From positions 4,840 through 68,839 of the forward strand of contig JAGGRY010000036.1 of assembly GCA_021159365.1 (NCBI GenBank): a DNA stretch of 64,000 bases, written 5' to 3'. This document shows positions 15,723-21,787 of the stretch, piece after piece. Positions within the stretch are counted from its first letter, which is position 1. The number at the start of each line of letters is the position of its first letter. The notes under the pieces were generated by a model. The model searched no databases, had not been told where the DNA came from, and was given only the letters and a program-made list of their open reading frames with translations. This DNA comes from Nitrososphaerota archaeon. GTDB lineage: Archaea; Thermoproteota; Nitrososphaeria_A; Caldarchaeales; Wolframiiraptoraceae. The position numbers and the translations under genes are program-made.

Positions 15723-16225
15723 GAGTTAACTATCTCAGTAAGAAGGAAACCTCACTGCTGGCCAATAGGATAAGATCACTGTATTGGGGTGACGTATTGA
15801 GAGGAAAGATAAGGAATGCTGTAGAGATAAGGGAAAATGGGATAAAGCTTTACAGGATAGGCGAGCTCATAATCGGGGAGATTAATGATAAACTCTATCC
15901 GGTAATCCATGAGAGAAATCAGGAGGTATTAAACAAGTTACCCGCAATAATAGTGGATATGGGAGCAGTTCCACACATAGTTAATGGAGCAGATGTGATG
16001 AGGCCGGGAATTAAAGAGTTTAGAGGAGAATTTGATGAAGGCGATTTGGTGGTCGTTAGAGATGAGAGAAATCTTAAGCCGTTGGCCGTGGCTATCACCC
16101 TAGTAGGGCTTGAGGAGTGTAAGGCCATGGAGAGAGGGAAGGTGGCGAAAAATATTCACCATGTAAATGATAAGATTTGGAAACTGATGAGAAAGATAAG
16201 ACATATACTTGAACGAGAACTTTAA
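15719..16225 (+). CDS. PUA-domain RNA-binding protein
   Basis: 168 aa. GADVMRPGI and VVVRDERNLKPLAVAITL are typical PUA signatures. Start overlaps the upstream stop (ATGA). Confidence 0.7.
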   Translation: MRVNYLSKKETSLLANRIRSLYWGDVLRGKIRNAVEIRENGIKLYRIGELIIGEINDKLYPVIHERNQEVLNKLPAIIVDMGAVPHIVNGADVMRPGIKEFRGEFDEGDLVVVRDERNLKPLAVAITLVGLEECKAMERGKVAKNIHHVNDKIWKLMRKIRHILEREL

Positions 16226-17382
16226 CTCCTAATCTTCAGGAGGAATAGAACTCCGATTAGGTTTATTAAAGAACCTATCCAGAAGATGCCTAAAACCTCC
16301 ACGTAATTGTAGAGGATTCCGGCGATCATGGGGCCTGGAATGCTAATTATGCTCGTTATAAGATCCAGTGATCCTATTATCGCCCCAACCCCTCTTCCAT
16401 TCGCGATCTCGGCCAAGATCTTCCTCCTGGCCGGCATATCCATCGAGCTTACGATACCCATGAAGATCGCTGAGACGATTATTATCGCAAAGTTCCATGA
16501 GTATGCGTAGAACATCCATGAAGCGAAGGATGTTATAAGATGCCATGTCAAGATTCCTTTCCCTCCAATTTTATCGGTTAAAATGCCCCAGAGAACTGTG
16601 GTGAAGACCATTGATAAAGTCCAGGTGGAGTTGACGATACCTATTCCATAGTCGCTTAGCCCCAGATCACTTGCGTGAACAGAGATAAATGGGAAGAGTA
16701 TGTTGAAGCCCATGGCGTGAAATATCAAGCCTATCGATAGGGATCTGAAGTTCTCATCCTCTACTAGAAGACTTTTTATGCTTAGAGAGCTGCCTGGGGA
16801 ATCGGTTGAGCTTTGATCGCCTTTGAGTAGAATCGTTGGTATGATGGCTAAGAACGACATTATAGATGATAGGAGAAATAATATGTTGCTCCCGAATAAT
16901 TCCTTAACCGATCCGCCTACAAAAGATCCTATTACGTCTCCGAGTAATCCTCCGGATAAGGCTATTCCATAGACAACTCCTGCTCTCTTAACGCCTCCCT
17001 TTTCAACGGTATAAGCCGTAACTGAGACTATGAATGATCCATAACCCATTCCAGAGATGAAGCATGCAACTGAAAGGATTATTGGATCTCTCGTATAAGC
17101 CATTATGATCACGGAGAATCCCATCAATATCAGGCCGAAGGCCATGACTTTCCTTCTACCGAATCTATCGGATAGTCTTCCAGCCGGGAGGACGCTGACA
17201 GCATAAGACAAATTATATAGAGTCATTATAACTCCGAGAACCTCGCCGCTGAGCATGAGATCCTTGATCAGATACTTTCCAAAGAGAGAATACCAAAGCC
17301 ATGTACTACATTCGGCTAAGAGATATGCAAGGGTTGAGAAGCCTGCAGCCGATAATGCGCTGGTGAAACTCTCCGTGCTCAA
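16222..17382 (-). CDS. MFS transporter
   Basis: 386 aa with about 11-12 TM segments. The loop motif GRLSDRFGRRKV is the MFS signature between TM2 and TM3. Confidence 0.85.
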   Translation of the reverse strand: MSTESFTSALSAAGFSTLAYLLAECSTWLWYSLFGKYLIKDLMLSGEVLGVIMTLYNLSYAVSVLPAGRLSDRFGRRKVMAFGLILMGFSVIIMAYTRDPIILSVACFISGMGYGSFIVSVTAYTVEKGGVKRAGVVYGIALSGGLLGDVIGSFVGGSVKELFGSNILFLLSSIMSFLAIIPTILLKGDQSSTDSPGSSLSIKSLLVEDENFRSLSIGLIFHAMGFNILFPFISVHASDLGLSDYGIGIVNSTWTLSMVFTTVLWGILTDKIGGKGILTWHLITSFASWMFYAYSWNFAIIIVSAIFMGIVSSMDMPARRKILAEIANGRGVGAIIGSLDLITSIISIPGPMIAGILYNYVEVLGIFWIGSLINLIGVLFLLKIRS

Positions 17383-17436
17383 ATCAACCTATTGAGACCG
17401 CTAAAGGGGTAGAATTTGAAGATGCCGAACCCCCTT

Positions 17437-17748
17437 TTATCCCGTCAGTATTATCGGTCTACGTTCAACTAGTGCTTGGATGAGTTTTCTCCTACCGCTA
17501 TCTAGAGCTCTCCAAAGAGTTCCACGTGAGATCTTCATGAGCTTAGCTGCTTCCTCCTGAGTTCTTCTCTCAAGATAGACCAGTCTCAAGGCCTCGAACT
17601 CATCTGGTCTAAGATAGATTGGCGGAGATGGAAGCGGATTTCCCAAATCGTCTAGTGGTGCGAAGAAGAGCTTTCCCAACCCTATTCGAATAAATCTATC
17701 TTTAGGGGGTCTGCCTCTTCCATGAACTCTCCAACGCCACCTTGGCAT
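17437..17748 (-). CDS. DUF134/UPF0251 family DNA-binding protein (sigma-70 region-4-like HTH)
   Basis: MPRWRW..GRGRPPKDRFI...LRPDEFEALRLVYLERRTQEEAAKLMKISRGTLWRALDSGRRKLIQAL matches the UPF0251 pattern as I recall it. Confidence 0.8.
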   Translation of the reverse strand: MPRWRWRVHGRGRPPKDRFIRIGLGKLFFAPLDDLGNPLPSPPIYLRPDEFEALRLVYLERRTQEEAAKLMKISRGTLWRALDSGRRKLIQALVERRPIILTG

Positions 17749-17772
17749 TCAAGATAAAATCTCTTATTTGGA

Positions 17773-17808
17773 GTTTATAAAGTGAATCATACTAATGTGC
17801 GATCGCAC
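17773..17808. promoter_or_regulatory. Palindromic TATA element TTTATAAA (17773-17780) plus a perfect 14-bp palindrome TGTGCGATCGCACA (17795-17808)
   Basis: Read directly from the sequence. The site lies in the 99-bp divergent spacer between the DUF134 gene and the low-complexity/NifX/MinD operon. The palindrome sits where the + strand transcript would start. Confidence 0.5.
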
Positions 17809-17847
17809 AAAACTTAAAGCCACCTTCGATGTCTTAACTTGGGGTGA

Positions 17848-18075
17848 ATGCTAGTGGGATACCCATACAGGAGATATTGGAGATACCCATTTTACCCGAT
17901 GCCACTCTATCCGCCGTTCATGCCGCCATATCCGCCAAGCCCAGAAGATGAGCTTAGAATGCTGGAAGACTACAAGCGCGAACTCGAGGCTGAACTCAAG
18001 GATCTTGAGGAAGAGCTTAAGAGCGTTGAGGCTAGGATTGAGGAGCTGCGGAAGACGCTTGGCCAAAAGGGATAA
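17848..18075 (+). CDS. DUF5320-like small protein: Pro/Tyr/Arg-rich N-terminus plus coiled coil
   Basis: GYPYRRYWRYPFYPMPLYPPFMPPYPPSPEDEL then a heptad-rich EELK coil. A GGGGTGA SD-like sequence precedes it. GTG at 17854 may be the real start. The DUF5320 name is from memory. Confidence 0.6.
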   Translation: MLVGYPYRRYWRYPFYPMPLYPPFMPPYPPSPEDELRMLEDYKRELEAELKDLEEELKSVEARIEELRKTLGQKG

Positions 18076-18116
18076 AGGTTAAATTTTGAGCAATATCACA
18101 AAAATGGTGAGAGAAG

Positions 18117-18428
18117 ATGGGATGGGGTTGGAGAGGTAGAGGTTGGGGATGGTGGTCTCCCTGGCCTGGAAGAGGACCATTCAGCTACCTACCACCATGG
18201 CTTAGACCAGGCTGGCTCTTCGGGAGAGGAGCATGCTGGTGGCTATTCGGCGCTCCATGGGGGCTAAGATGGTGGCTGCCATGGATCTATGGATATTATC
18301 CGTGGTATAGCTACTGGTGGCCATACCCGTGGACAGCCTATCGCTACTACCCATGGACTGCATACGGTTATTATCCATGGATGATGTACGGCTATTCGCC
18401 ATATGCTTATCTATGGCCGTACTACTGA
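18117..18428 (+). CDS. Extreme Trp/Tyr/Pro/Gly-rich low-complexity protein (103 aa)
   Basis: By manual count: 21 W, 19 Y, 15 P, 15 G, 7 R, and no D/E/K. Tandem YYPWTAY units. A GGTGAGAG SD-like sequence lies 5 nt upstream of the ATG. Same strand and tight spacing with its neighbours. Confidence 0.6.
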   Translation: MGWGWRGRGWGWWSPWPGRGPFSYLPPWLRPGWLFGRGACWWLFGAPWGLRWWLPWIYGYYPWYSYWWPYPWTAYRYYPWTAYGYYPWMMYGYSPYAYLWPYY

Positions 18429-18446
18429 TTCTGAGGTGGAATAGGA

Positions 18447-19193
18447 GTGTGGTGGGGCTACCCAGGCTATTGGAGAACACCGCCTATAACTCGGCCTCTA
18501 TCGCCTGAACAGGAATTGGATTGGCTTGAGTCCTATAAACGAGGGCTAGAGGATGAGATAAACCGTATTAAGGAAGAGATTAAGAGGGTTGAGGAGGAGA
18601 TTGAGAGATTGAAGAAAGAGATCGAATCCATGCCTCCCGAAGTCCAGCAACCTTCACCAACCTATCCTCCAGCTTATCAGCCAGCTCCCATGCCTGGATA
18701 TGGAATGGAGTATCAGCCAATGTATATGCCTGGACCGGGCTATGGCATGGGTTGGGGCCGTAGGATGGGTTGGGGTAGAGGGATGGGTAGAGGATGGGGA
18801 GCTATGCCTCCAGCAGCTGCACCTCAGATGCCTCAGCTACCTCCATTAAGATCTGGAGTCAAAAGAGTTGTCGCCGCCGTCGAGGATAATAATGGATTAG
18901 ATTCTAGGATCTCTTCAAGGTTTGGTAGGGCGCCTTTCATGGCGTTCGTCGATGTCGCGGATGGAGAAGTCAAGGCCGTTAACATAATTCCAAATCAAGC
19001 AGCTAATCTCCCAACAGGAGCTGGAATAAGTGTCGCCCAATGGGTTATCTCTGCTCAAGCAACCGATGTAATCGCGCCATATCTTGGACCGAATGTCTCA
19101 ATGGTCTTCTCGCAGGCAGGTCTAAGAGTTCACTCGACTGAGCCCTTAATTCCCTTGTCAGAAGCTTTGAGAAGAGCTGGATTCATAAGATAG
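18447..19193 (+). CDS. DUF5320-like N-terminus (aromatic, coiled coil, Gly/Met/Trp-rich linker) fused to a NifX/NifB-type dinitrogenase FeMo-cofactor-binding-like domain
   Basis: N-terminus MWWGYPGYWRTPP..SPEQELDWLESYKRGLEDE is paralogous to ORF 17848. The linker is GYGMGWGRRMGWGRGMGRGWG. C-terminus KRVVAAVEDNNGLDSRISSRFGRAPFMAFVDV...GAGISVAQWVISAQATDVIA matches the Nitro_FeMo-Co-type pattern. GTG start with a GAGGTGGA SD. Confidence 0.7.
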   Translation: MWWGYPGYWRTPPITRPLSPEQELDWLESYKRGLEDEINRIKEEIKRVEEEIERLKKEIESMPPEVQQPSPTYPPAYQPAPMPGYGMEYQPMYMPGPGYGMGWGRRMGWGRGMGRGWGAMPPAAAPQMPQLPPLRSGVKRVVAAVEDNNGLDSRISSRFGRAPFMAFVDVADGEVKAVNIIPNQAANLPTGAGISVAQWVISAQATDVIAPYLGPNVSMVFSQAGLRVHSTEPLIPLSEALRRAGFIR

Positions 19194-19195
19194 TC

Positions 19196-20077
19196 ATGGA
19201 GATCGTTGTCGCCAGCGGAAAGGGTGGAACCGGCAAGACATTCCTAGCATCAAACTTGGCCATATTGATCGATGAGAAGCTCGATGGAGTCGTGGCCGCG
19301 GACGCAGATGTGGAAGCGCCAGATCTAATCCTGGCAATGGGAGGAGAGAAGAGGCTCTTAAAGAGTAGGGAGATCTGGGAGTCCATGAAGGCATCCATAA
19401 ACTACGAACTCTGCAATAGGTGTTTGAAGTGCATTGATGTATGCATGTTTGATGCAATAAGATTAGTCGATGGCAAGCCTAAGATCGTCGAAGAATTCTG
19501 CGAGGGATGTGGAGCATGTGCCCACGTATGTCCAGTGAATGCGATAAGCTTCAGGAAGGCTAAAACCGGTAGAATTTACTCTGTTGAAACCATGGCCGGC
19601 GTGAAGACCACCACAGGAGATCTAGAAATAGGTGGAAGAAATACTGGAGAACTCGTCTACCTCGTTAGAGAGGAAGCGAAGGAGTTCGCGAGAAAAGATC
19701 ACGTGAAGAATATAATCATAGATAGCGCTCCTGGAATAGGATGTCCCGTGATCTCAAGCCTATCCGGAGCAGATCTATTGATAATCGTGGTCGAGCCGAC
19801 CCCGCAGTCCCTCACGGGAGCTAAGAGGCTGTTAAAGGTCGCTGAATCGTTTAAGATGAAGGTAACCTACGTCGTGAATAAATTTGATCTAAATGAAGAG
19901 TTCCTCAAGACGATAGACTCCGAGCTTGGATTAGAATGTGTTGGGAAGATACCATACGATTCAGAAGTTCCATCATCATACTCGATGATGAGGCCGATGG
20001 CGATATATGGAATGGATACGAGAGCTGGAAGAGCGTTAAAAGAGGTATTTGAGAGCTTAGGGAGCTGGATAACTTGA
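19196..20077 (+). CDS. MinD/ParA-type P-loop ATPase with inserted 2x[4Fe-4S] ferredoxin domain
   Basis: Deviant Walker A ASGKGGTGKT. Two Cys clusters: CNRCLKCIDVC and CEGCGACAHVCP. Confidence 0.85.
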   Translation: MEIVVASGKGGTGKTFLASNLAILIDEKLDGVVAADADVEAPDLILAMGGEKRLLKSREIWESMKASINYELCNRCLKCIDVCMFDAIRLVDGKPKIVEEFCEGCGACAHVCPVNAISFRKAKTGRIYSVETMAGVKTTTGDLEIGGRNTGELVYLVREEAKEFARKDHVKNIIIDSAPGIGCPVISSLSGADLLIIVVEPTPQSLTGAKRLLKVAESFKMKVTYVVNKFDLNEEFLKTIDSELGLECVGKIPYDSEVPSSYSMMRPMAIYGMDTRAGRALKEVFESLGSWIT

Positions 20078-20958
20078 CCGAGATAATCTCAGTCGCAGGC
20101 GGGAAAGGTGGAACAGGAAAAACACTAGTCGCAGTCAACTTAGCATACATGTTAAATCAGGATCGCAGAACTCTCCTAGTTGACGTCGACGTCGATAACC
20201 CTTGCACGAGATCCTTCTTCGAGGTGAGGCAACTATGGGAGAAAAAGGTGTTAGAGTTCAGGCCGAAGATAAACCAAGATCTATGCAAGCTCTGCGGAAT
20301 ATGTGTAAGAAACTGTCCAGAACACGCCTTAGTAATGATTCCGGGAAAACAGGTGATGTTGGTTGAAGAGCTGTGCGCTGGATGCGGAGTGTGTAGACTT
20401 GTATGTCCCTTTAACGCGATCGAGGAATCATGGATTGAAGGAGGAGTCGTTAAGGGATATGAGACCGAAGATGGAATTGATCTAGTCGTCGGAGAGCTTC
20501 AGCCAACCTGCAGGAGAAGTCCGGTGATGATCTTGAAAACCCTGAATGTCGTGAAGGACCTCATAGAAAAATACGAGTATATCGTCATGGACGCGCCTCC
20601 CGGAGCGGATGCAGGAATATACTCGATAATGGATTATTCTGAGACTATCTTGGCCGTGACCGAGCCGACGCCCTTAGGTCTCATGGATCTTAAGAAGATC
20701 TATAGACTGTATCAGAAGTTCTTTCATGGTAGAAAGAGATTCATGGTGATCATCAACAAGTATGGCCTACCCGGCGGCTCCGATCAGGAGACGAGGAGAT
20801 TTCTTGAGGAAAATGGGATAGCTTGGACTACCATACCATACGATGACTTAATTGTGCGAAGCTATATCGCCGGAGAACTCATAGTAAAGGCTCATCCTGA
20901 TTCGAAGGCGGCCAGCTCCCTCAGAGGGGTCATCAAATTGCTGGGGAAGGAGATATAA
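20074..20958 (+). CDS. MinD/ParA-type P-loop ATPase with inserted 2x[4Fe-4S] ferredoxin domain (paralogue)
   Basis: AGGKGGTGKT, with clusters CKLCGICVRNCP and CAGCGVCRLVCP. Overlaps the upstream stop by 4 nt. Confidence 0.85.
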   Translation: MTEIISVAGGKGGTGKTLVAVNLAYMLNQDRRTLLVDVDVDNPCTRSFFEVRQLWEKKVLEFRPKINQDLCKLCGICVRNCPEHALVMIPGKQVMLVEELCAGCGVCRLVCPFNAIEESWIEGGVVKGYETEDGIDLVVGELQPTCRRSPVMILKTLNVVKDLIEKYEYIVMDAPPGADAGIYSIMDYSETILAVTEPTPLGLMDLKKIYRLYQKFFHGRKRFMVIINKYGLPGGSDQETRRFLEENGIAWTTIPYDDLIVRSYIAGELIVKAHPDSKAASSLRGVIKLLGKEI

Positions 20959-20984
20959 GGTTGAAGTCCTTTAGATTCTGAGGA

Positions 20985-21212
20985 TTGAGCCGTAAAAAAG
21001 CTGTCAAGTTGAAGATAGTCGATCATAGACACTGCTTGACATGCGGTAAGGCGATTCCACCTGATAAGGAGTTTTGCTCAGAGGAATGTAGGAAGAAGTA
21101 TGAACGGGCGAGGATGAGGGAGGAGAGGGTGAAGAAGATACTCTGGATAATGTATGCTGTGATGATAGGTTCTCTTTTAATTGTGATCGTGCTTAGGACG
21201 ATGATTCACTAA
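20985..21212 (+). CDS. Small Zn-ribbon protein with C-terminal TM helix (DUF2116-like)
   Basis: CLTCGKAIPPDKEFCSEECRKKY followed by the hydrophobic ILWIMYAVMIGSLLIVIVL. Confidence 0.5.
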   Translation: MSRKKAVKLKIVDHRHCLTCGKAIPPDKEFCSEECRKKYERARMREERVKKILWIMYAVMIGSLLIVIVLRTMIH

Positions 21213-21787
21213 TAAGGTCTATCCTTAAGCTTAAGCAGATATGCAATGAAGTTCGTGGATAAGTGAAGTATCGCCGTGATGACTAGGATGCAGGCCAGGC
21301 TTACAGGGTTAAACCAATCTGGAACTCCATAAATGGCCGCTGATATTATTAGGGCGATTATGAGGAAGCCGAGTTGATCCAATCCAGGAGCCGGATCCCC
21401 CCTCTTCAATCCAATTCTCCTCTTGAGGAATGAGCCGAAGATATCTCCGATCATCGCGCCCATACTCAAGATTATAGGCTCAGAGATGGATCTAAACCCT
21501 CCAAGATTTCCAGCTAAATACAAGATCACTCCGATTAGAGTTCCTCCAGCTATCCCGGAGAAAAGGCCTTCCCATGTCTTTCCATCTCCTAAGATCCTCC
21601 TCCCATCCCATGCAAATCTACGCCCATCTATCGGGGTTGTCTTCTTCAGAATTCTGGAAAATGGAACAGGTGTAGCATTAGCCACGTATACGGGGAGAAT
21701 GTAGAGGAGCGCTGCTAGAATTTTTTCGAGCATTCTTACCATGACTCGATTCCAGATCGACCTCTTAAATCCTACTCTAGAAGTCAA
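21209..21787 (-). CDS. carS: CDP-archaeol synthase (CDP-2,3-bis-O-geranylgeranyl-sn-glycerol synthase)
   Basis: LPVYVANATPV...PIDGRRFAWDGRRILGDGKTWEG...GDIFGSFLKRRIGLKRGDPAPGLDQLGF matches the CarS/DUF46 signature. Confidence 0.8.
   Translation of the reverse strand: MTSRVGFKRSIWNRVMVRMLEKILAALLYILPVYVANATPVPFSRILKKTTPIDGRRFAWDGRRILGDGKTWEGLFSGIAGGTLIGVILYLAGNLGGFRSISEPIILSMGAMIGDIFGSFLKRRIGLKRGDPAPGLDQLGFLIIALIISAAIYGVPDWFNPVSLACILVITAILHLSTNFIAYLLKLKDRPY

Follow-up and report, generated by a model that had tools for sequence, protein, structure and literature searches.

A conserved tryptophan-rich small protein of heat-loving archaea, encoded among iron-sulfur genes and possibly a scaffold of an IssA-like assembly

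The open reading frame at positions 18117-18428 (+) of the window, a 64,000-nt stretch of contig JAGGRY010000036.1 from a Nitrososphaerota archaeon of the Wolframiiraptoraceae, encodes a 103-residue protein which is a real, conserved and uncharacterised small protein of heat-loving archaea. It is probably a sticky, positively charged scaffold piece of an Fe-S storage or delivery system. The best explanation in more precise terms is that it serves an IssA-like Fe-S assembly as a scaffold or adaptor subunit and is the N-terminal half of a split DUF5320, a reading which we hold tentatively, with a little less than even confidence.

Sequence and reading frame

Translation gave exactly the 103 residues reported in an earlier note on this DNA, starting with GWGWRGRGWGWW and including the C-terminal units PWTAYRYY, PWTAYGYY and PWMMYGYS. 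The protein contains 21 Trp (20.4%), 19 Tyr, 15 Gly, 15 Pro, 7 Arg and 7 Leu, W, Y, P and G together making up 68%. Asp, Glu and Lys are absent, as the earlier note had counted, and so are His, Asn, Gln and Val. Its Trp content, which had been called extreme, is the maximum among the 302 open reading frames of at least 40 aa in the window (mean 1.4%, 99th percentile 8.4%), and such a composition is far beyond chance. The protein has a mass of about 13 kDa, a net charge of +7 and a calculated eps280 of about 144,000 M-1cm-1. The SD-like GGTGAGAG (18106..18113, +) is present as claimed, although read from the sequence it lies 3 nt ahead of the ATG and not 5 nt; in relatives, GGAGGTGAAGGAAGA precedes the ATG of the core gene. 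The protein had no matches in Pfam or NCBIfam, and a sequence search of the PDB gave none below E=0.5. AF2, run with a 37-sequence alignment, gave a mean pLDDT of 48.6 and a pTM of 0.21, ie no stable monomer fold was predicted, which fits a structure that needs a partner or a ligand.

The earlier note had proposed a check of frame conservation, and this showed an excess of synonymous changes in the frame of the 103-aa protein. Against three relatives dN/dS is 0.04-0.13 for the whole frame, 0-0.06 for the N-terminus plus core (the core being residues 15-47, described below) and 0.07-0.21 for the tail. Two of the three comparisons show no non-synonymous changes in the N-terminus plus core against 9-13 synonymous changes, and the third shows 2 against 8; within the core itself there are none relative to loci L005 and L001, and 2 relative to L004. 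All indels are of whole codons, and in eight diverged homologues only the +0 frame is open. The overlapping reading frames 18202-18480 (-) and 18317-18508 (+), which had been named as possible competitors, are interrupted in relatives. The homologue search that had also been suggested returned hundreds of protein-level homologues over the archaeal phyla. Gene callers left the frame uncalled in two other assemblies with identical DNA, and the exact sequence was not found in the protein collection; nevertheless the idea of a chance reading frame in TGG-rich low-complexity DNA, with another frame or an RNA as the real feature, is already refuted by the purifying selection and the stops in all other frames, and both the homologues and an Rfam scan of 16000-21500, which gave a single sub-threshold chance match and no family, speak against it too. 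Read-through into the following 248-aa frame was considered, as the two are in the same frame here with TGA TTC TGA between them, and was rejected: the spacer in L001 has three stops and the genes in L003 are in different frames.

Modules of the protein

Across homologues the N-terminal part is conserved and the C-terminal part is hypervariable. Residues 1-14 (18117..18158, +) form a cationic (GW/GR)n arm, MGWGWRGRGWGWWS, which in all homologues compared consists of G, W and R at differing lengths. Residues 15-47 (18159..18257, +), PWPGRGPFSYLPPWLRPGWLFGRGACWWLFGAP, are a core which is nearly invariant in homologue alignments. The family motif of about 30-33 residues, PWPGRGPFSYLPPWxRPGWxFGRGACWW, is almost unchanged throughout, with 18-20 invariant columns over 24-37 sequences from several archaeal phyla. 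It holds an internal repeat, GRGPFSYL / GRGACWWL, and AF2 gave it a pLDDT of only about 58-68. The description of the protein as pure low complexity does not hold for these residues, since they are a nearly invariant motif with one conserved cysteine. That residue, Cys40 (codon 18234..18236, +), is the only cysteine in the protein and stands in a column at least 90% conserved; exactly one Cys was found in 93 of 98 proteins of the same, tail-bearing type.

Residues 48-103 (18258..18425, +) make up a nearly uncharged aromatic tail, 52% W+Y, with 8 Pro (one every 6-8 residues), 2 Arg and no acidic residues. It has no charged helical segment, and AF2 predicts it to be disordered with no C-terminal helix. 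When the tails of the family are pooled, Y accounts for 23%, P for 20%, W for 12% and D+E for 2%, and the median length is 40. A repeat search found two 24-nt tandem units (18324..18371, +), coding for YPWTAYRY and YPWTAYGY, which are 71% identical in DNA and identical at 7/8 residues in protein. One 8-codon unit is exactly missing in L004. Tandem Repeats Finder reported nothing in 18050-18500, this diverged pair included.

Family and architecture

A search with the single 103-aa sequence gave 245 homologues and a core-profile search gave 539 protein clusters, while 312 loci with the core were found in GTDB species genomes. The proteins are 60-105 aa long with 15-26% Trp, and the family is widespread in hot, anoxic archaea. 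It occurs in two forms: in one the core is followed by a coiled coil and Pfam sees DUF5320 (PF17253), in the other it is followed by an uncharged W/Y/P tail and Pfam misses it. Relatives P0068, P0116, P0014 and P0019 have the same core, with 58-76% overall identity, and score 27.3-32.3 bits against PF17253 (30.8, 32.3 and 27.3 bits for the core plus coiled-coil relatives P0068, P0116 and P0014, respectively), the Pfam gathering threshold being 27 bits. Neither the 103-aa protein nor its first 53 residues matched PF17253 at E up to 10. A family with such a Trp content, under strong purifying selection, partly missed by gene callers and unseen by Pfam, therefore marks an annotation blind spot for composition-biased small proteins.

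DUF5320 proteins are small and uncharacterised; their N-terminal half is rich in G and R, a coiled coil makes up the C-terminal part, and the literature mentions them in unrelated papers only. The 103-aa protein is homologous to bona fide members through the shared sequence. In common with them it has an N-terminal region of G, R and aromatic residues in which a Cys is conserved, and a neighbourhood of NifX-like, MinD-Fer4 and DUF134 genes, which is typical of the DUF5320 family in the loci examined. It differs in that its own chain carries the W/Y/P tail where theirs has a coiled coil, and in having no Pfam match; the PWPGRGPFSYLPPWxRPGW motif is restricted to its archaeal branch. The coiled coil is supplied instead by the two neighbouring proteins of 75 and 248 aa. 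A separate aromatic-plus-coiled-coil gene lies next door in 45 of 68 tail-type loci, compared with none of the 8 loci of the coiled-coil type (Fisher p=4e-4). In L017, where the trio of small genes stands alone beside unrelated genes, this partner scores 28.3 bits against PF17253, above the threshold. Judged by sequence, a tail-type gene with its coiled-coil neighbour looks like a split DUF5320, and we rate the 103-aa protein as a variant of a family which is already known but uncharacterised.

The operon and its neighbourhood

The operon is preceded by a divergent gene for a DUF134 (UPF0251) helix-turn-helix protein (17437..17748, -; PF02001, 61.4 bits, plus sigma-70 region 4), which is likely to be its regulator; searches of the literature on DUF134 and on COG1149/COG1433 found nothing functional. 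A palindrome, TGTGCGATCGCACA (17796..17809), is a candidate operator, as five related loci share TGTGC-N4-GCAC without change. A TATA-like AACTTAAAG (17811..17819, +) starts 2 nt downstream of it and, with TTA.A conserved in the five-locus alignment, is the candidate promoter of the operon. The gene at 17848..18075 (+) encodes the 75-aa partner, with a Y/P/R/W-rich N-terminus and a coiled coil, PEDELRMLEDYKRELEAELKDLEEELKSVEARIEELRK; PF17253 aligns over profile positions 45-98 with 26.2 bits, and the protein resembles a DUF5320 reduced to its C-terminal half. After the 103-aa frame comes the 248-aa NifX/IssA-like protein (18447..19193, +; PF02579 51.6 bits, PF17253 27.9 bits), in which an aromatic N-terminus, a coiled coil, a Pro-rich stretch and GWGRRMGWGRGMGRGWG precede the NifX/IssA-like domain. 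This domain has 29% identity to the N-terminal domain of Pyrococcus furiosus IssA (E=6e-12), and in the PDB it matches MTH1175 and ORP, the orange protein. Two MinD/CbiA-type P-loop ATPases follow, each with an inserted ferredoxin: the first (19196..20077, +; PF01656, PF00037) carries 2x[4Fe-4S] and is syntenic in relatives, the second lies at 20074..20958 (+; PF01656, PF13614, PF00037). The related aromatic N-termini that had been noticed in the flanking proteins are evident from their sequences, Pfam supports the assignment of the downstream genes as FeS ATPases, and the proposed link of the frame to them is borne out by conserved synteny.

Neighbours were counted in 80 loci of 10 kb, as genes up to 5 kb from the core gene. 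NifX-like, MinD-Fer4 or DUF134 genes are found in 59 of the 80 and about one quarter of the loci have none of these Fe-S neighbours. A gene of the MBL fold is present in 17/80, and Mrp/NBP35 is directly adjacent in 4 loci. In Thermococci, NifX-like genes whose products have low-complexity tails surround the core genes, with a pair of MinD-Fer4 ATPase genes adjoining, and in T. aggregans the core gene (NF865_09520, P0053) has an IssA orthologue at a distance of about 5 kb. NifX-like domains are recurrently fused to GRGW/coiled-coil DUF5320 modules, in both orders (P0260, P0264 and the 248-aa protein).

Comparison with IssA and the ORP complex

IssA (PF2025/SipA) is a thioferrate iron-sulfur storage protein of P. 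furiosus which forms cytoplasmic bodies of 20-300 nm, and its tail has been proposed to bind anionic thioferrate, with aromatic contacts as a stabilising element (PMC5524996, Vaccaro et al. 2017). SipB is co-induced with IssA by sulfur and is listed for T. onnurineus as 'ATPase C-terminus' (PMC4463584); we infer that it is a MinD-type ATPase. The IssA tail, FGWGRGWGKGRGWGRGWGSILGYCPWTG...YYGWW, is rich in W, G and R, with GWW at its end and one Cys in all. Like the 103-aa protein it is cationic, has GWGRG-type repeats and a Trp-rich C-terminal end, and carries aromatic residues on either side of its only Cys; both are tied to genes for a NifX-like domain and a MinD-type ATPase. The likeness in composition and repeats lies in the (GW/GR)n arm, and residues 1-47 (11 Gly, 10 Trp, 5 Arg, 1 Cys) form a cationic W/G/R segment with a single cysteine. 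The IssA tail, however, is covalently joined to its NifX-like domain whereas the 103-aa module is a separate reading frame with that domain encoded in the next gene, and it has neither the invariant core nor the long uncharged aromatic tail. The core was judged not to be homologous to the tail of IssA, as hhalign gave a probability of 8% and BLASTP against Thermococcales IssA tails was empty. The N-terminal arm and the single Cys thus resemble the IssA tail in composition only, without detectable homology.

The ORP complex of Desulfovibrio vulgaris contains the ferredoxin-type MinD ATPases Orp3 and Orp4, the NifX-like Orp8 and MrpORP. It shares with the operon a NifX-like protein and two MinD-type ATPases with 2x[4Fe-4S] motifs, and the NifX-like domain of the operon matches the ORP structure 2WFB. 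The published accounts consulted name no DUF5320 or Trp-rich subunit, and the complex is regulated by sigma-54 and an EBP where the operon has DUF134.

Possible functions

In the scaffold reading, the aromatic tail would associate with the aromatic N-termini of the 75-aa and 248-aa proteins, an association suggested by their co-occurrence, and the coiled coils of these two would oligomerise the assembly. The Arg-rich arm and the core with its Cys might then touch a negatively charged inorganic Fe-S species, or a cluster on the NifX/IssA-like domain, much as the W/G/R tail of Pyrococcus IssA has been proposed to wrap thioferrate. The two MinD-type ferredoxin ATPases would load, unload or otherwise handle the Fe-S assembly, and DUF134 would regulate the operon. 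Clusters that combine a NifX-like gene with MinD-ferredoxin ATPase genes occur widely in anaerobes, as IssA/SipB in Thermococcales and as ORP in Desulfovibrio, and within IssA only the low-complexity W/G/R tail has been proposed to help retain thioferrate. Counterparts of such tails that are free-standing and far better conserved would provide an experimental handle, being small, with one Cys and very strong Trp fluorescence and absorbance. A chain of 52% Trp+Tyr, selected for composition and partly for sequence, is also an uncommon case from nature on which aromatic-driven assembly at high temperature could be studied. Against the scaffold reading stand the missing homology between core and IssA tail, the quarter or so of loci with no Fe-S neighbours, and a small-gene trio that stands alone, as in L017. 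The core is also so strongly conserved that it suggests a specific protein partner and not loose electrostatic binding of a mineral.

Such a partner could be DUF134. The 103-aa protein would then be a regulatory partner or sensor, for example Fe-S- or sulfide-dependent through Cys40, which controls the operon and is not a structural part of an Fe-S assembly; we consider this unlikely. A very highly conserved core suits a protein-protein interface, and the conserved palindrome lies at the operon promoter. In 38/80 loci a DUF134 gene lies no more than 5 kb away from the core gene, often as its immediate neighbour, and in 15/80 it is the only neighbour that can be recognised. In one Thermoplasmata locus, DUF134, core and coiled coil are in one uninterrupted frame (L033, 4653-5255), but the genes may merely be joined by a short spacer that keeps the frame and happens to lack a stop, the estimated chance of which is about 0.1. 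A role beside DUF134 also leaves the long aromatic tail and the coiled-coil partners unexplained, and it is NifX-like domains, not DUF134, which are repeatedly fused to DUF5320 modules.

Slightly less probable is an adaptor like McdB, which would link both MinD/ParA-type ATPases to a cargo, for instance an Fe-S storage body of the IssA kind, for positioning or partitioning, with terminal Trp residues and condensate-like self-association mediating the binding of cargo. McdB, the adaptor of the ParA/MinD-type McdA in carboxysome positioning, needs an invariant C-terminal Trp and forms condensates (PMC11321042). Like the 103-aa protein it is small, largely disordered and encoded beside the ATPase gene; a coiled coil is present in both systems and self-association is likely in both. 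Two MinD-family ATPases are encoded in the operon and such genes lie within 5 kb in 27/80 loci, Trp is the last residue of 63 of the 98 tail-type proteins, often as WW, IssA makes bodies that might serve as cargo, and the bacterial ORP complex, with homologous ATPases, has been linked to cell division. On the other hand, there is no sequence relationship to McdB, the 103-aa protein ends in PYY, ATPases with ferredoxin inserts equally resemble Fe-S maturation or carrier NTPases, many loci have no ATPases nearby, and both cargo and positioning are hypothetical here. A wider version, equally doubtful, is that Trp-rich DUF5320-type proteins in general serve an archaeal organelle-like system as adaptors: they would coat or nucleate an inorganic, thioferrate-like storage body made with NifX/IssA-like proteins and link this body to the two MinD/ParA-type ferredoxin ATPases, for its assembly, positioning or inheritance. 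If true, the McdAB system of carboxysomes would have an Fe-S counterpart whose cohesion came from a Trp/Tyr/Pro 'velcro' and not from folded domains.

A surface-active peptide lying in the lipid interface and anchoring the complex near the iron importer FeoB is very unlikely. Indolicidin and tritrpticin, 13-residue secreted antimicrobial peptides of animals, are likewise Trp/Pro/Arg-rich and cationic without acidic residues, and cationic peptides rich in Trp, indolicidin among them, locate to the lipid interface. The W/Y/P/R-rich composition is in keeping with such a location, and FeoAB adjoins the operon in the close relatives L001-L003. The family, however, is one of 60-105-aa cytoplasmic archaeal proteins with an invariant core and an Fe-S operon. 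The 103-aa protein has no signal peptide or hydrophobic helix, its best-conserved part is a specific motif with no amphipathic pattern, the neighbouring genes encode soluble Fe-S proteins, and the association with FeoB is weak (within 5 kb in 7/80 loci).

The conserved N-terminus and hypervariable C-terminus would also suit a RiPP precursor, the former as its leader and the latter as an aromatic core peptide in which a radical SAM enzyme forms cross-links, and a radical SAM gene is within 5 kb in 10/80 loci. This reading was rejected as most unlikely: these genes show weak generic matches and no RiPP-type family, they are missing from the window and most loci, no modifying enzyme is consistently adjacent, protease and exporter are absent, and the coiled-coil-type relatives keep the 'leader' but bear a helical domain in place of a core peptide.

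A search of 1.84 billion representatives gave only 93 clusters, nearly all of 55-175 aa. As to fusions with informative domains, two long matches look like unrelated repeat proteins (one, P0293, was inspected). A few variants among the 93 clusters carry an extra 3-Cys motif.

Coding status of the Trp-rich ORF

Translation of 18117-18428 (+) gives a protein of 103 residues, MGWGWRGRGWGWWSPWPGRGPFSYLPPWLRPGWLFGRGACWWLFGAPWGLRWWLPWIYGYYPWYSYWWPYPWTAYRYYPWTAYGYYPWMMYGYSPYAYLWPYY, with an arm (residues 1-14), a core (15-47) and a tail (48-103). The extreme composition claimed in the earlier note was confirmed: 21 Trp (20.4%), 19 Tyr, 15 Gly, 15 Pro and 7 Arg, with no Asp, Glu or Lys; His, Asn, Gln and Val are likewise absent, and there is a single Cys. 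The window holds 302 ORFs of 40 aa or longer; their Trp content averages 1.4%, with 8.4% at the 99th percentile, and this ORF has the highest value. The tail is 52% Trp+Tyr with one Pro per 6-8 residues, and its longest aromatic-free stretch is 3 residues at most. The tandem units described at the C-terminus hold on the protein level, as two 24-nt copies (18324-18371) with a peptide identity of 7/8; their DNA identity is only 71%, and they were not reported by TRF. An SD-like element is indeed present upstream, GGTGAGAG at 18106-18113, but its spacing to the ATG is 3 nt and not the 5 nt first given.

The conservation of the reading frame was determined by Nei-Gojobori comparison with the DNA of close relatives (loci L001/L003, L004 and L005). 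Overall dN/dS is 0.04-0.13, with values of 0.07-0.21 in the tail and 0-0.06 in the N-terminus and core. In the latter region there are no non-synonymous and 9-13 synonymous changes against L005 and L001, and two and eight, respectively, against L004. Length differences among these relatives are whole codons, one 8-codon unit being exactly missing in L004. The frame is the sole stop-free one in eight homologues of rising divergence, where the alternative ORFs of the earlier note are broken, and no Rfam family matched the region. The 103-aa ORF is a real gene; the chance that it is spurious is negligible. Window positions 18076-18446 recur identically in two independent metagenome assemblies (2130-2500 in both L085 and L086), where the ORF is uncalled and falls in a 371-nt gap in the gene calls. 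The exact 103-aa sequence, and that of the 75-aa protein encoded just upstream, were not found in a collection of 15 billion proteins; both neighbours tested, the downstream 248-aa protein (MCD6126190.1) and the first ATPase, are present there. The 103-aa and 248-aa ORFs share a frame, separated by TGA TTC TGA GGT GGA ATA GGA (18426-18449). Read-through from one into the other is unlikely, because spacers and frames differ in relatives.

A widespread archaeal family

A single-sequence search with the 103-aa protein returned 245 homologues, a profile of its N-terminal 47 residues matched 539 clusters, and scanning a single genome for each GTDB species yielded 312 loci. Only 93 of 1.84 billion clusters in a 50%-identity representative library were matched, so the family is compact. 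Nearly all carriers are archaea of hot, anoxic habitats, including Nitrososphaeria (with Wolframiiraptor), Desulfurococcales, Thermofilales, Thermococci, Hadarchaeota, Bathyarchaeia, Methanomethylicota/Culexmicrobium, Korarchaeia and Thermoplasmata; two carrier MAGs bear a bacterial label. All members share a near-invariant core, (G/S)PWPGRGPFS(Y/H)LPPWxRPGW(L/I)(F/Y)GRG(A/S)CWW(L)(F), with 18-20 columns invariant across phyla and an internal repeat (GRGPFSYL / GRGACWWL). It is preceded by a (GW/GR)n arm whose length varies. In a sample of 173 proteins the core is followed by a linker and coiled coil in 75 and by an uncharged aromatic tail in 98. These tails, pooled, contain 23% Tyr, 20% Pro, 12% Trp and 2% Asp+Glu, with a median length of 40. 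Among the tail-type proteins 63/98 end in Trp and 93/98 have exactly one Cys, the median net charge is +7, and 16 exceed the 103-aa protein in Trp (up to 26.5%, in P0053 of Thermococcus aggregans).

Existing annotation of members is only 'hypothetical' or 'DUF5320 domain-containing', and a literature search found no paper on the Trp-rich family.

A proposed split DUF5320

Neither Pfam nor NCBIfam matched the 103-aa protein. Relatives of the coiled-coil type that share its core do pass PF17253 (DUF5320), at 27.3-32.3 bits, the score coming mainly from the coiled coil. Immediately upstream in the window, the 75-aa partner (17848-18075, +) consists of an aromatic N-terminus and a coiled coil, PEDELRMLEDYKRELEAELKDLEEELKSVEARIEELRK, and the protein scores 26.2 bits against the C-terminal half of the profile; the 248-aa protein (18447-19193, +) scores 27.9 bits. 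A separate partner gene, encoding an N-terminus that is either aromatic or rich in R, then a P/Q linker and the same conserved coiled coil, lies beside 45/68 tail-type genes, compared to 0/8 coiled-coil-type loci (Fisher p=4e-4), and one such partner (in L017) itself passes PF17253 at 28.3 bits. Since the coiled-coil relatives pass PF17253 and the tail-type loci carry the coiled coil as a separate partner, the tail-type protein is read as one half, the N-terminal one, of a DUF5320 that has been split in two; its tail and the partners' aromatic N-termini would be the likely means of re-association. Another small family (61-80 aa, aromatic N-terminus and helix) directly follows the core gene in 13 loci.

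AlphaFold2, run with a 37-sequence alignment, gave a mean pLDDT of 48.6 and a pTM of 0.21. Only residues 21-40 reached about 58-68, a short helix was predicted at 39-53, and the N-terminal arm and entire tail were modelled as disordered. No PDB relatives of the 103-aa protein were found. The low-confidence model, taken with the aromatic and Pro make-up of the tail, points to a chain that would be ordered only with partners or ligand.

A stand-alone trio occurs in Culexmicrobium and Methanomethylicota (L017 4959-5822; also L019, L039 and L042), comprising a tail-type gene, a 70-aa aromatic and helix gene and a 120-aa DUF5320 coiled-coil gene. It adjoins ThiW and CDC48 genes, with no NifX or MinD genes near.

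Operon and comparison with IssA

The window operon begins beside a divergent DUF134 HTH gene (17437-17748, -) and runs through the 75-aa partner and the 103-aa protein to the 248-aa protein, which opens with an aromatic segment and continues with a coiled coil, a stretch rich in Pro, GWGRRMGWGRGMGRGWG and, last, a PF02579 domain of the NifX-like type. Behind it come two P-loop ATPases of the CbiA/MinD kind, each with a ferredoxin insert (19196-20077 and 20074-20958, both +). Relatives keep this order, with FeoAB adjacent. The NifX-like domain shares 29% identity with the N-terminal domain of IssA (P0240; E=6e-12), the thioferrate storage protein of Pyrococcus furiosus also called SipA, and its PDB matches are MTH1175 and the Desulfovibrio orange protein, ORP. 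The ORP complex is the bacterial counterpart of the NifX-like and two ferredoxin-ATPase set, and has been tentatively tied to cell division (PMC6345978, PMC3897727).

The C-terminal tail of IssA is 70 residues long, first rich in Pro and then cationic, aromatic and rich in Gly; the protein has no Cys outside it and one within. In the proposal of Vaccaro et al. (PMC5524996), the tail winds around the anionic thioferrate chain and aromatic contacts stabilise the tail. Its sequence, FGWGRGWGKGRGWGRGWGSILGYCPWTGMPSRRALRWYYGWW, resembles the 103-aa family in its GW/GR repeats, single Cys flanked by aromatics and Trp-rich end. Neither profile-profile nor BLASTP comparison found homology between the core and the IssA tail, and the resemblance is one of composition and context, not of membership. 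SipB is co-induced with SipA by sulfur, and the T. onnurineus listing reads 'ATPase C-terminus' (PMC4463584); we infer that SipB is a MinD-type ATPase. At the Thermococci locus L020, two core-family genes are flanked by NifX-like genes, one with a Pro-rich 3-Cys tail and one with a GRG-rich tail, and two MinD-Fer4 ATPase genes are adjacent. The complete T. aggregans genome has an IssA orthologue, further NifX-like genes, a core gene, two MinD-Fer4 genes and DUF134 all inside 13 kb. NifX-like domains are also fused to GRGW modules or to coiled-coil DUF5320 modules, and may come either first or second (P0260, P0264 and the window 248-aa protein).

Proposed role

The likeliest function we infer for the 103-aa protein, if tentatively, is that of a scaffold or adaptor subunit in an IssA-like assembly for Fe-S storage or transfer. 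Its cationic arm, together with the core that bears the Cys, would contact an anionic Fe-S species or a cluster-loaded NifX-like domain. Its aromatic tail would attach to the N-termini, likewise aromatic, of the coiled-coil partners, and these would oligomerise the entire assembly. The MinD-ferredoxin ATPases would act on that assembly. Among 80 non-redundant loci, 59 have at least one of NifX-like, MinD-Fer4 and DUF134 genes within 5 kb, the NifX-like gene in 42/80, the MinD-Fer4 ATPase gene in 27/80 and DUF134 in 38/80; MBL-fold and FeoB genes lie within the same distance in 17/80 and 7/80, and a Mrp/NBP35 gene is the immediate neighbour in four loci. A role as sensor or partner of the DUF134 regulator is a minority possibility. 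An McdB-like adaptor, serving in positioning by the MinD-type ATPases, is a little less probable again. A membrane-interface anchor is improbable, and a RiPP precursor very much so. A conserved family with 15-26% Trp inside IssA/ORP-type clusters would surprise specialists, and it gives a practical entry point for learning how W/G/R segments of low complexity function in storing Fe-S.

Candidate operator and cysteine motifs

Between the DUF134 gene and the operon, 17796-17819 holds a palindrome, TGTGCGATCGCACA, followed after 2 nt by a TATA-like AACTTAAAG. The TGTGC-N4-GCAC of the palindrome is invariant in four related loci (L004, L001, L005 and L010), and the palindrome probably serves as operator for the DUF134 regulator. 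The window DUF134 protein begins MPRWRWRVHGRGRPPK; this N-terminus is rich in R and W and lacks Cys, a residue that canonical DUF134 proteins generally have in that segment. In a Thermoplasmata MAG (L033 4653-5255) a DUF134 domain, W-core and coiled coil form one uninterrupted 200-aa ORF, which may be a natural fusion tying the family to the regulator or a mere in-frame spacer.

A 3-Cys motif, approximately C-x-[HY]-[YF]-x-[NG]-G-x-C...A-C-P/A-x-F (L020 3324-3950; P0213, P0314, P0304), occurs both after the Pro-rich tail of a Thermococcus NifX-like protein and C-terminal to the W-core in variants without the core Cys, which suggests interchangeable Cys modules. A second conserved motif, Trp-rich and with a Cys, C-[RQ]-[WR]-F-P-W-L-P-R-(R)-W-W-W, is carried by canonical MP.G.GP-type DUF5320 partners and some core proteins (L054 5790-6035, L055 5893-6192, L065 5703-5954, L077 546-794; P0074, P0347, P0356, P0311).
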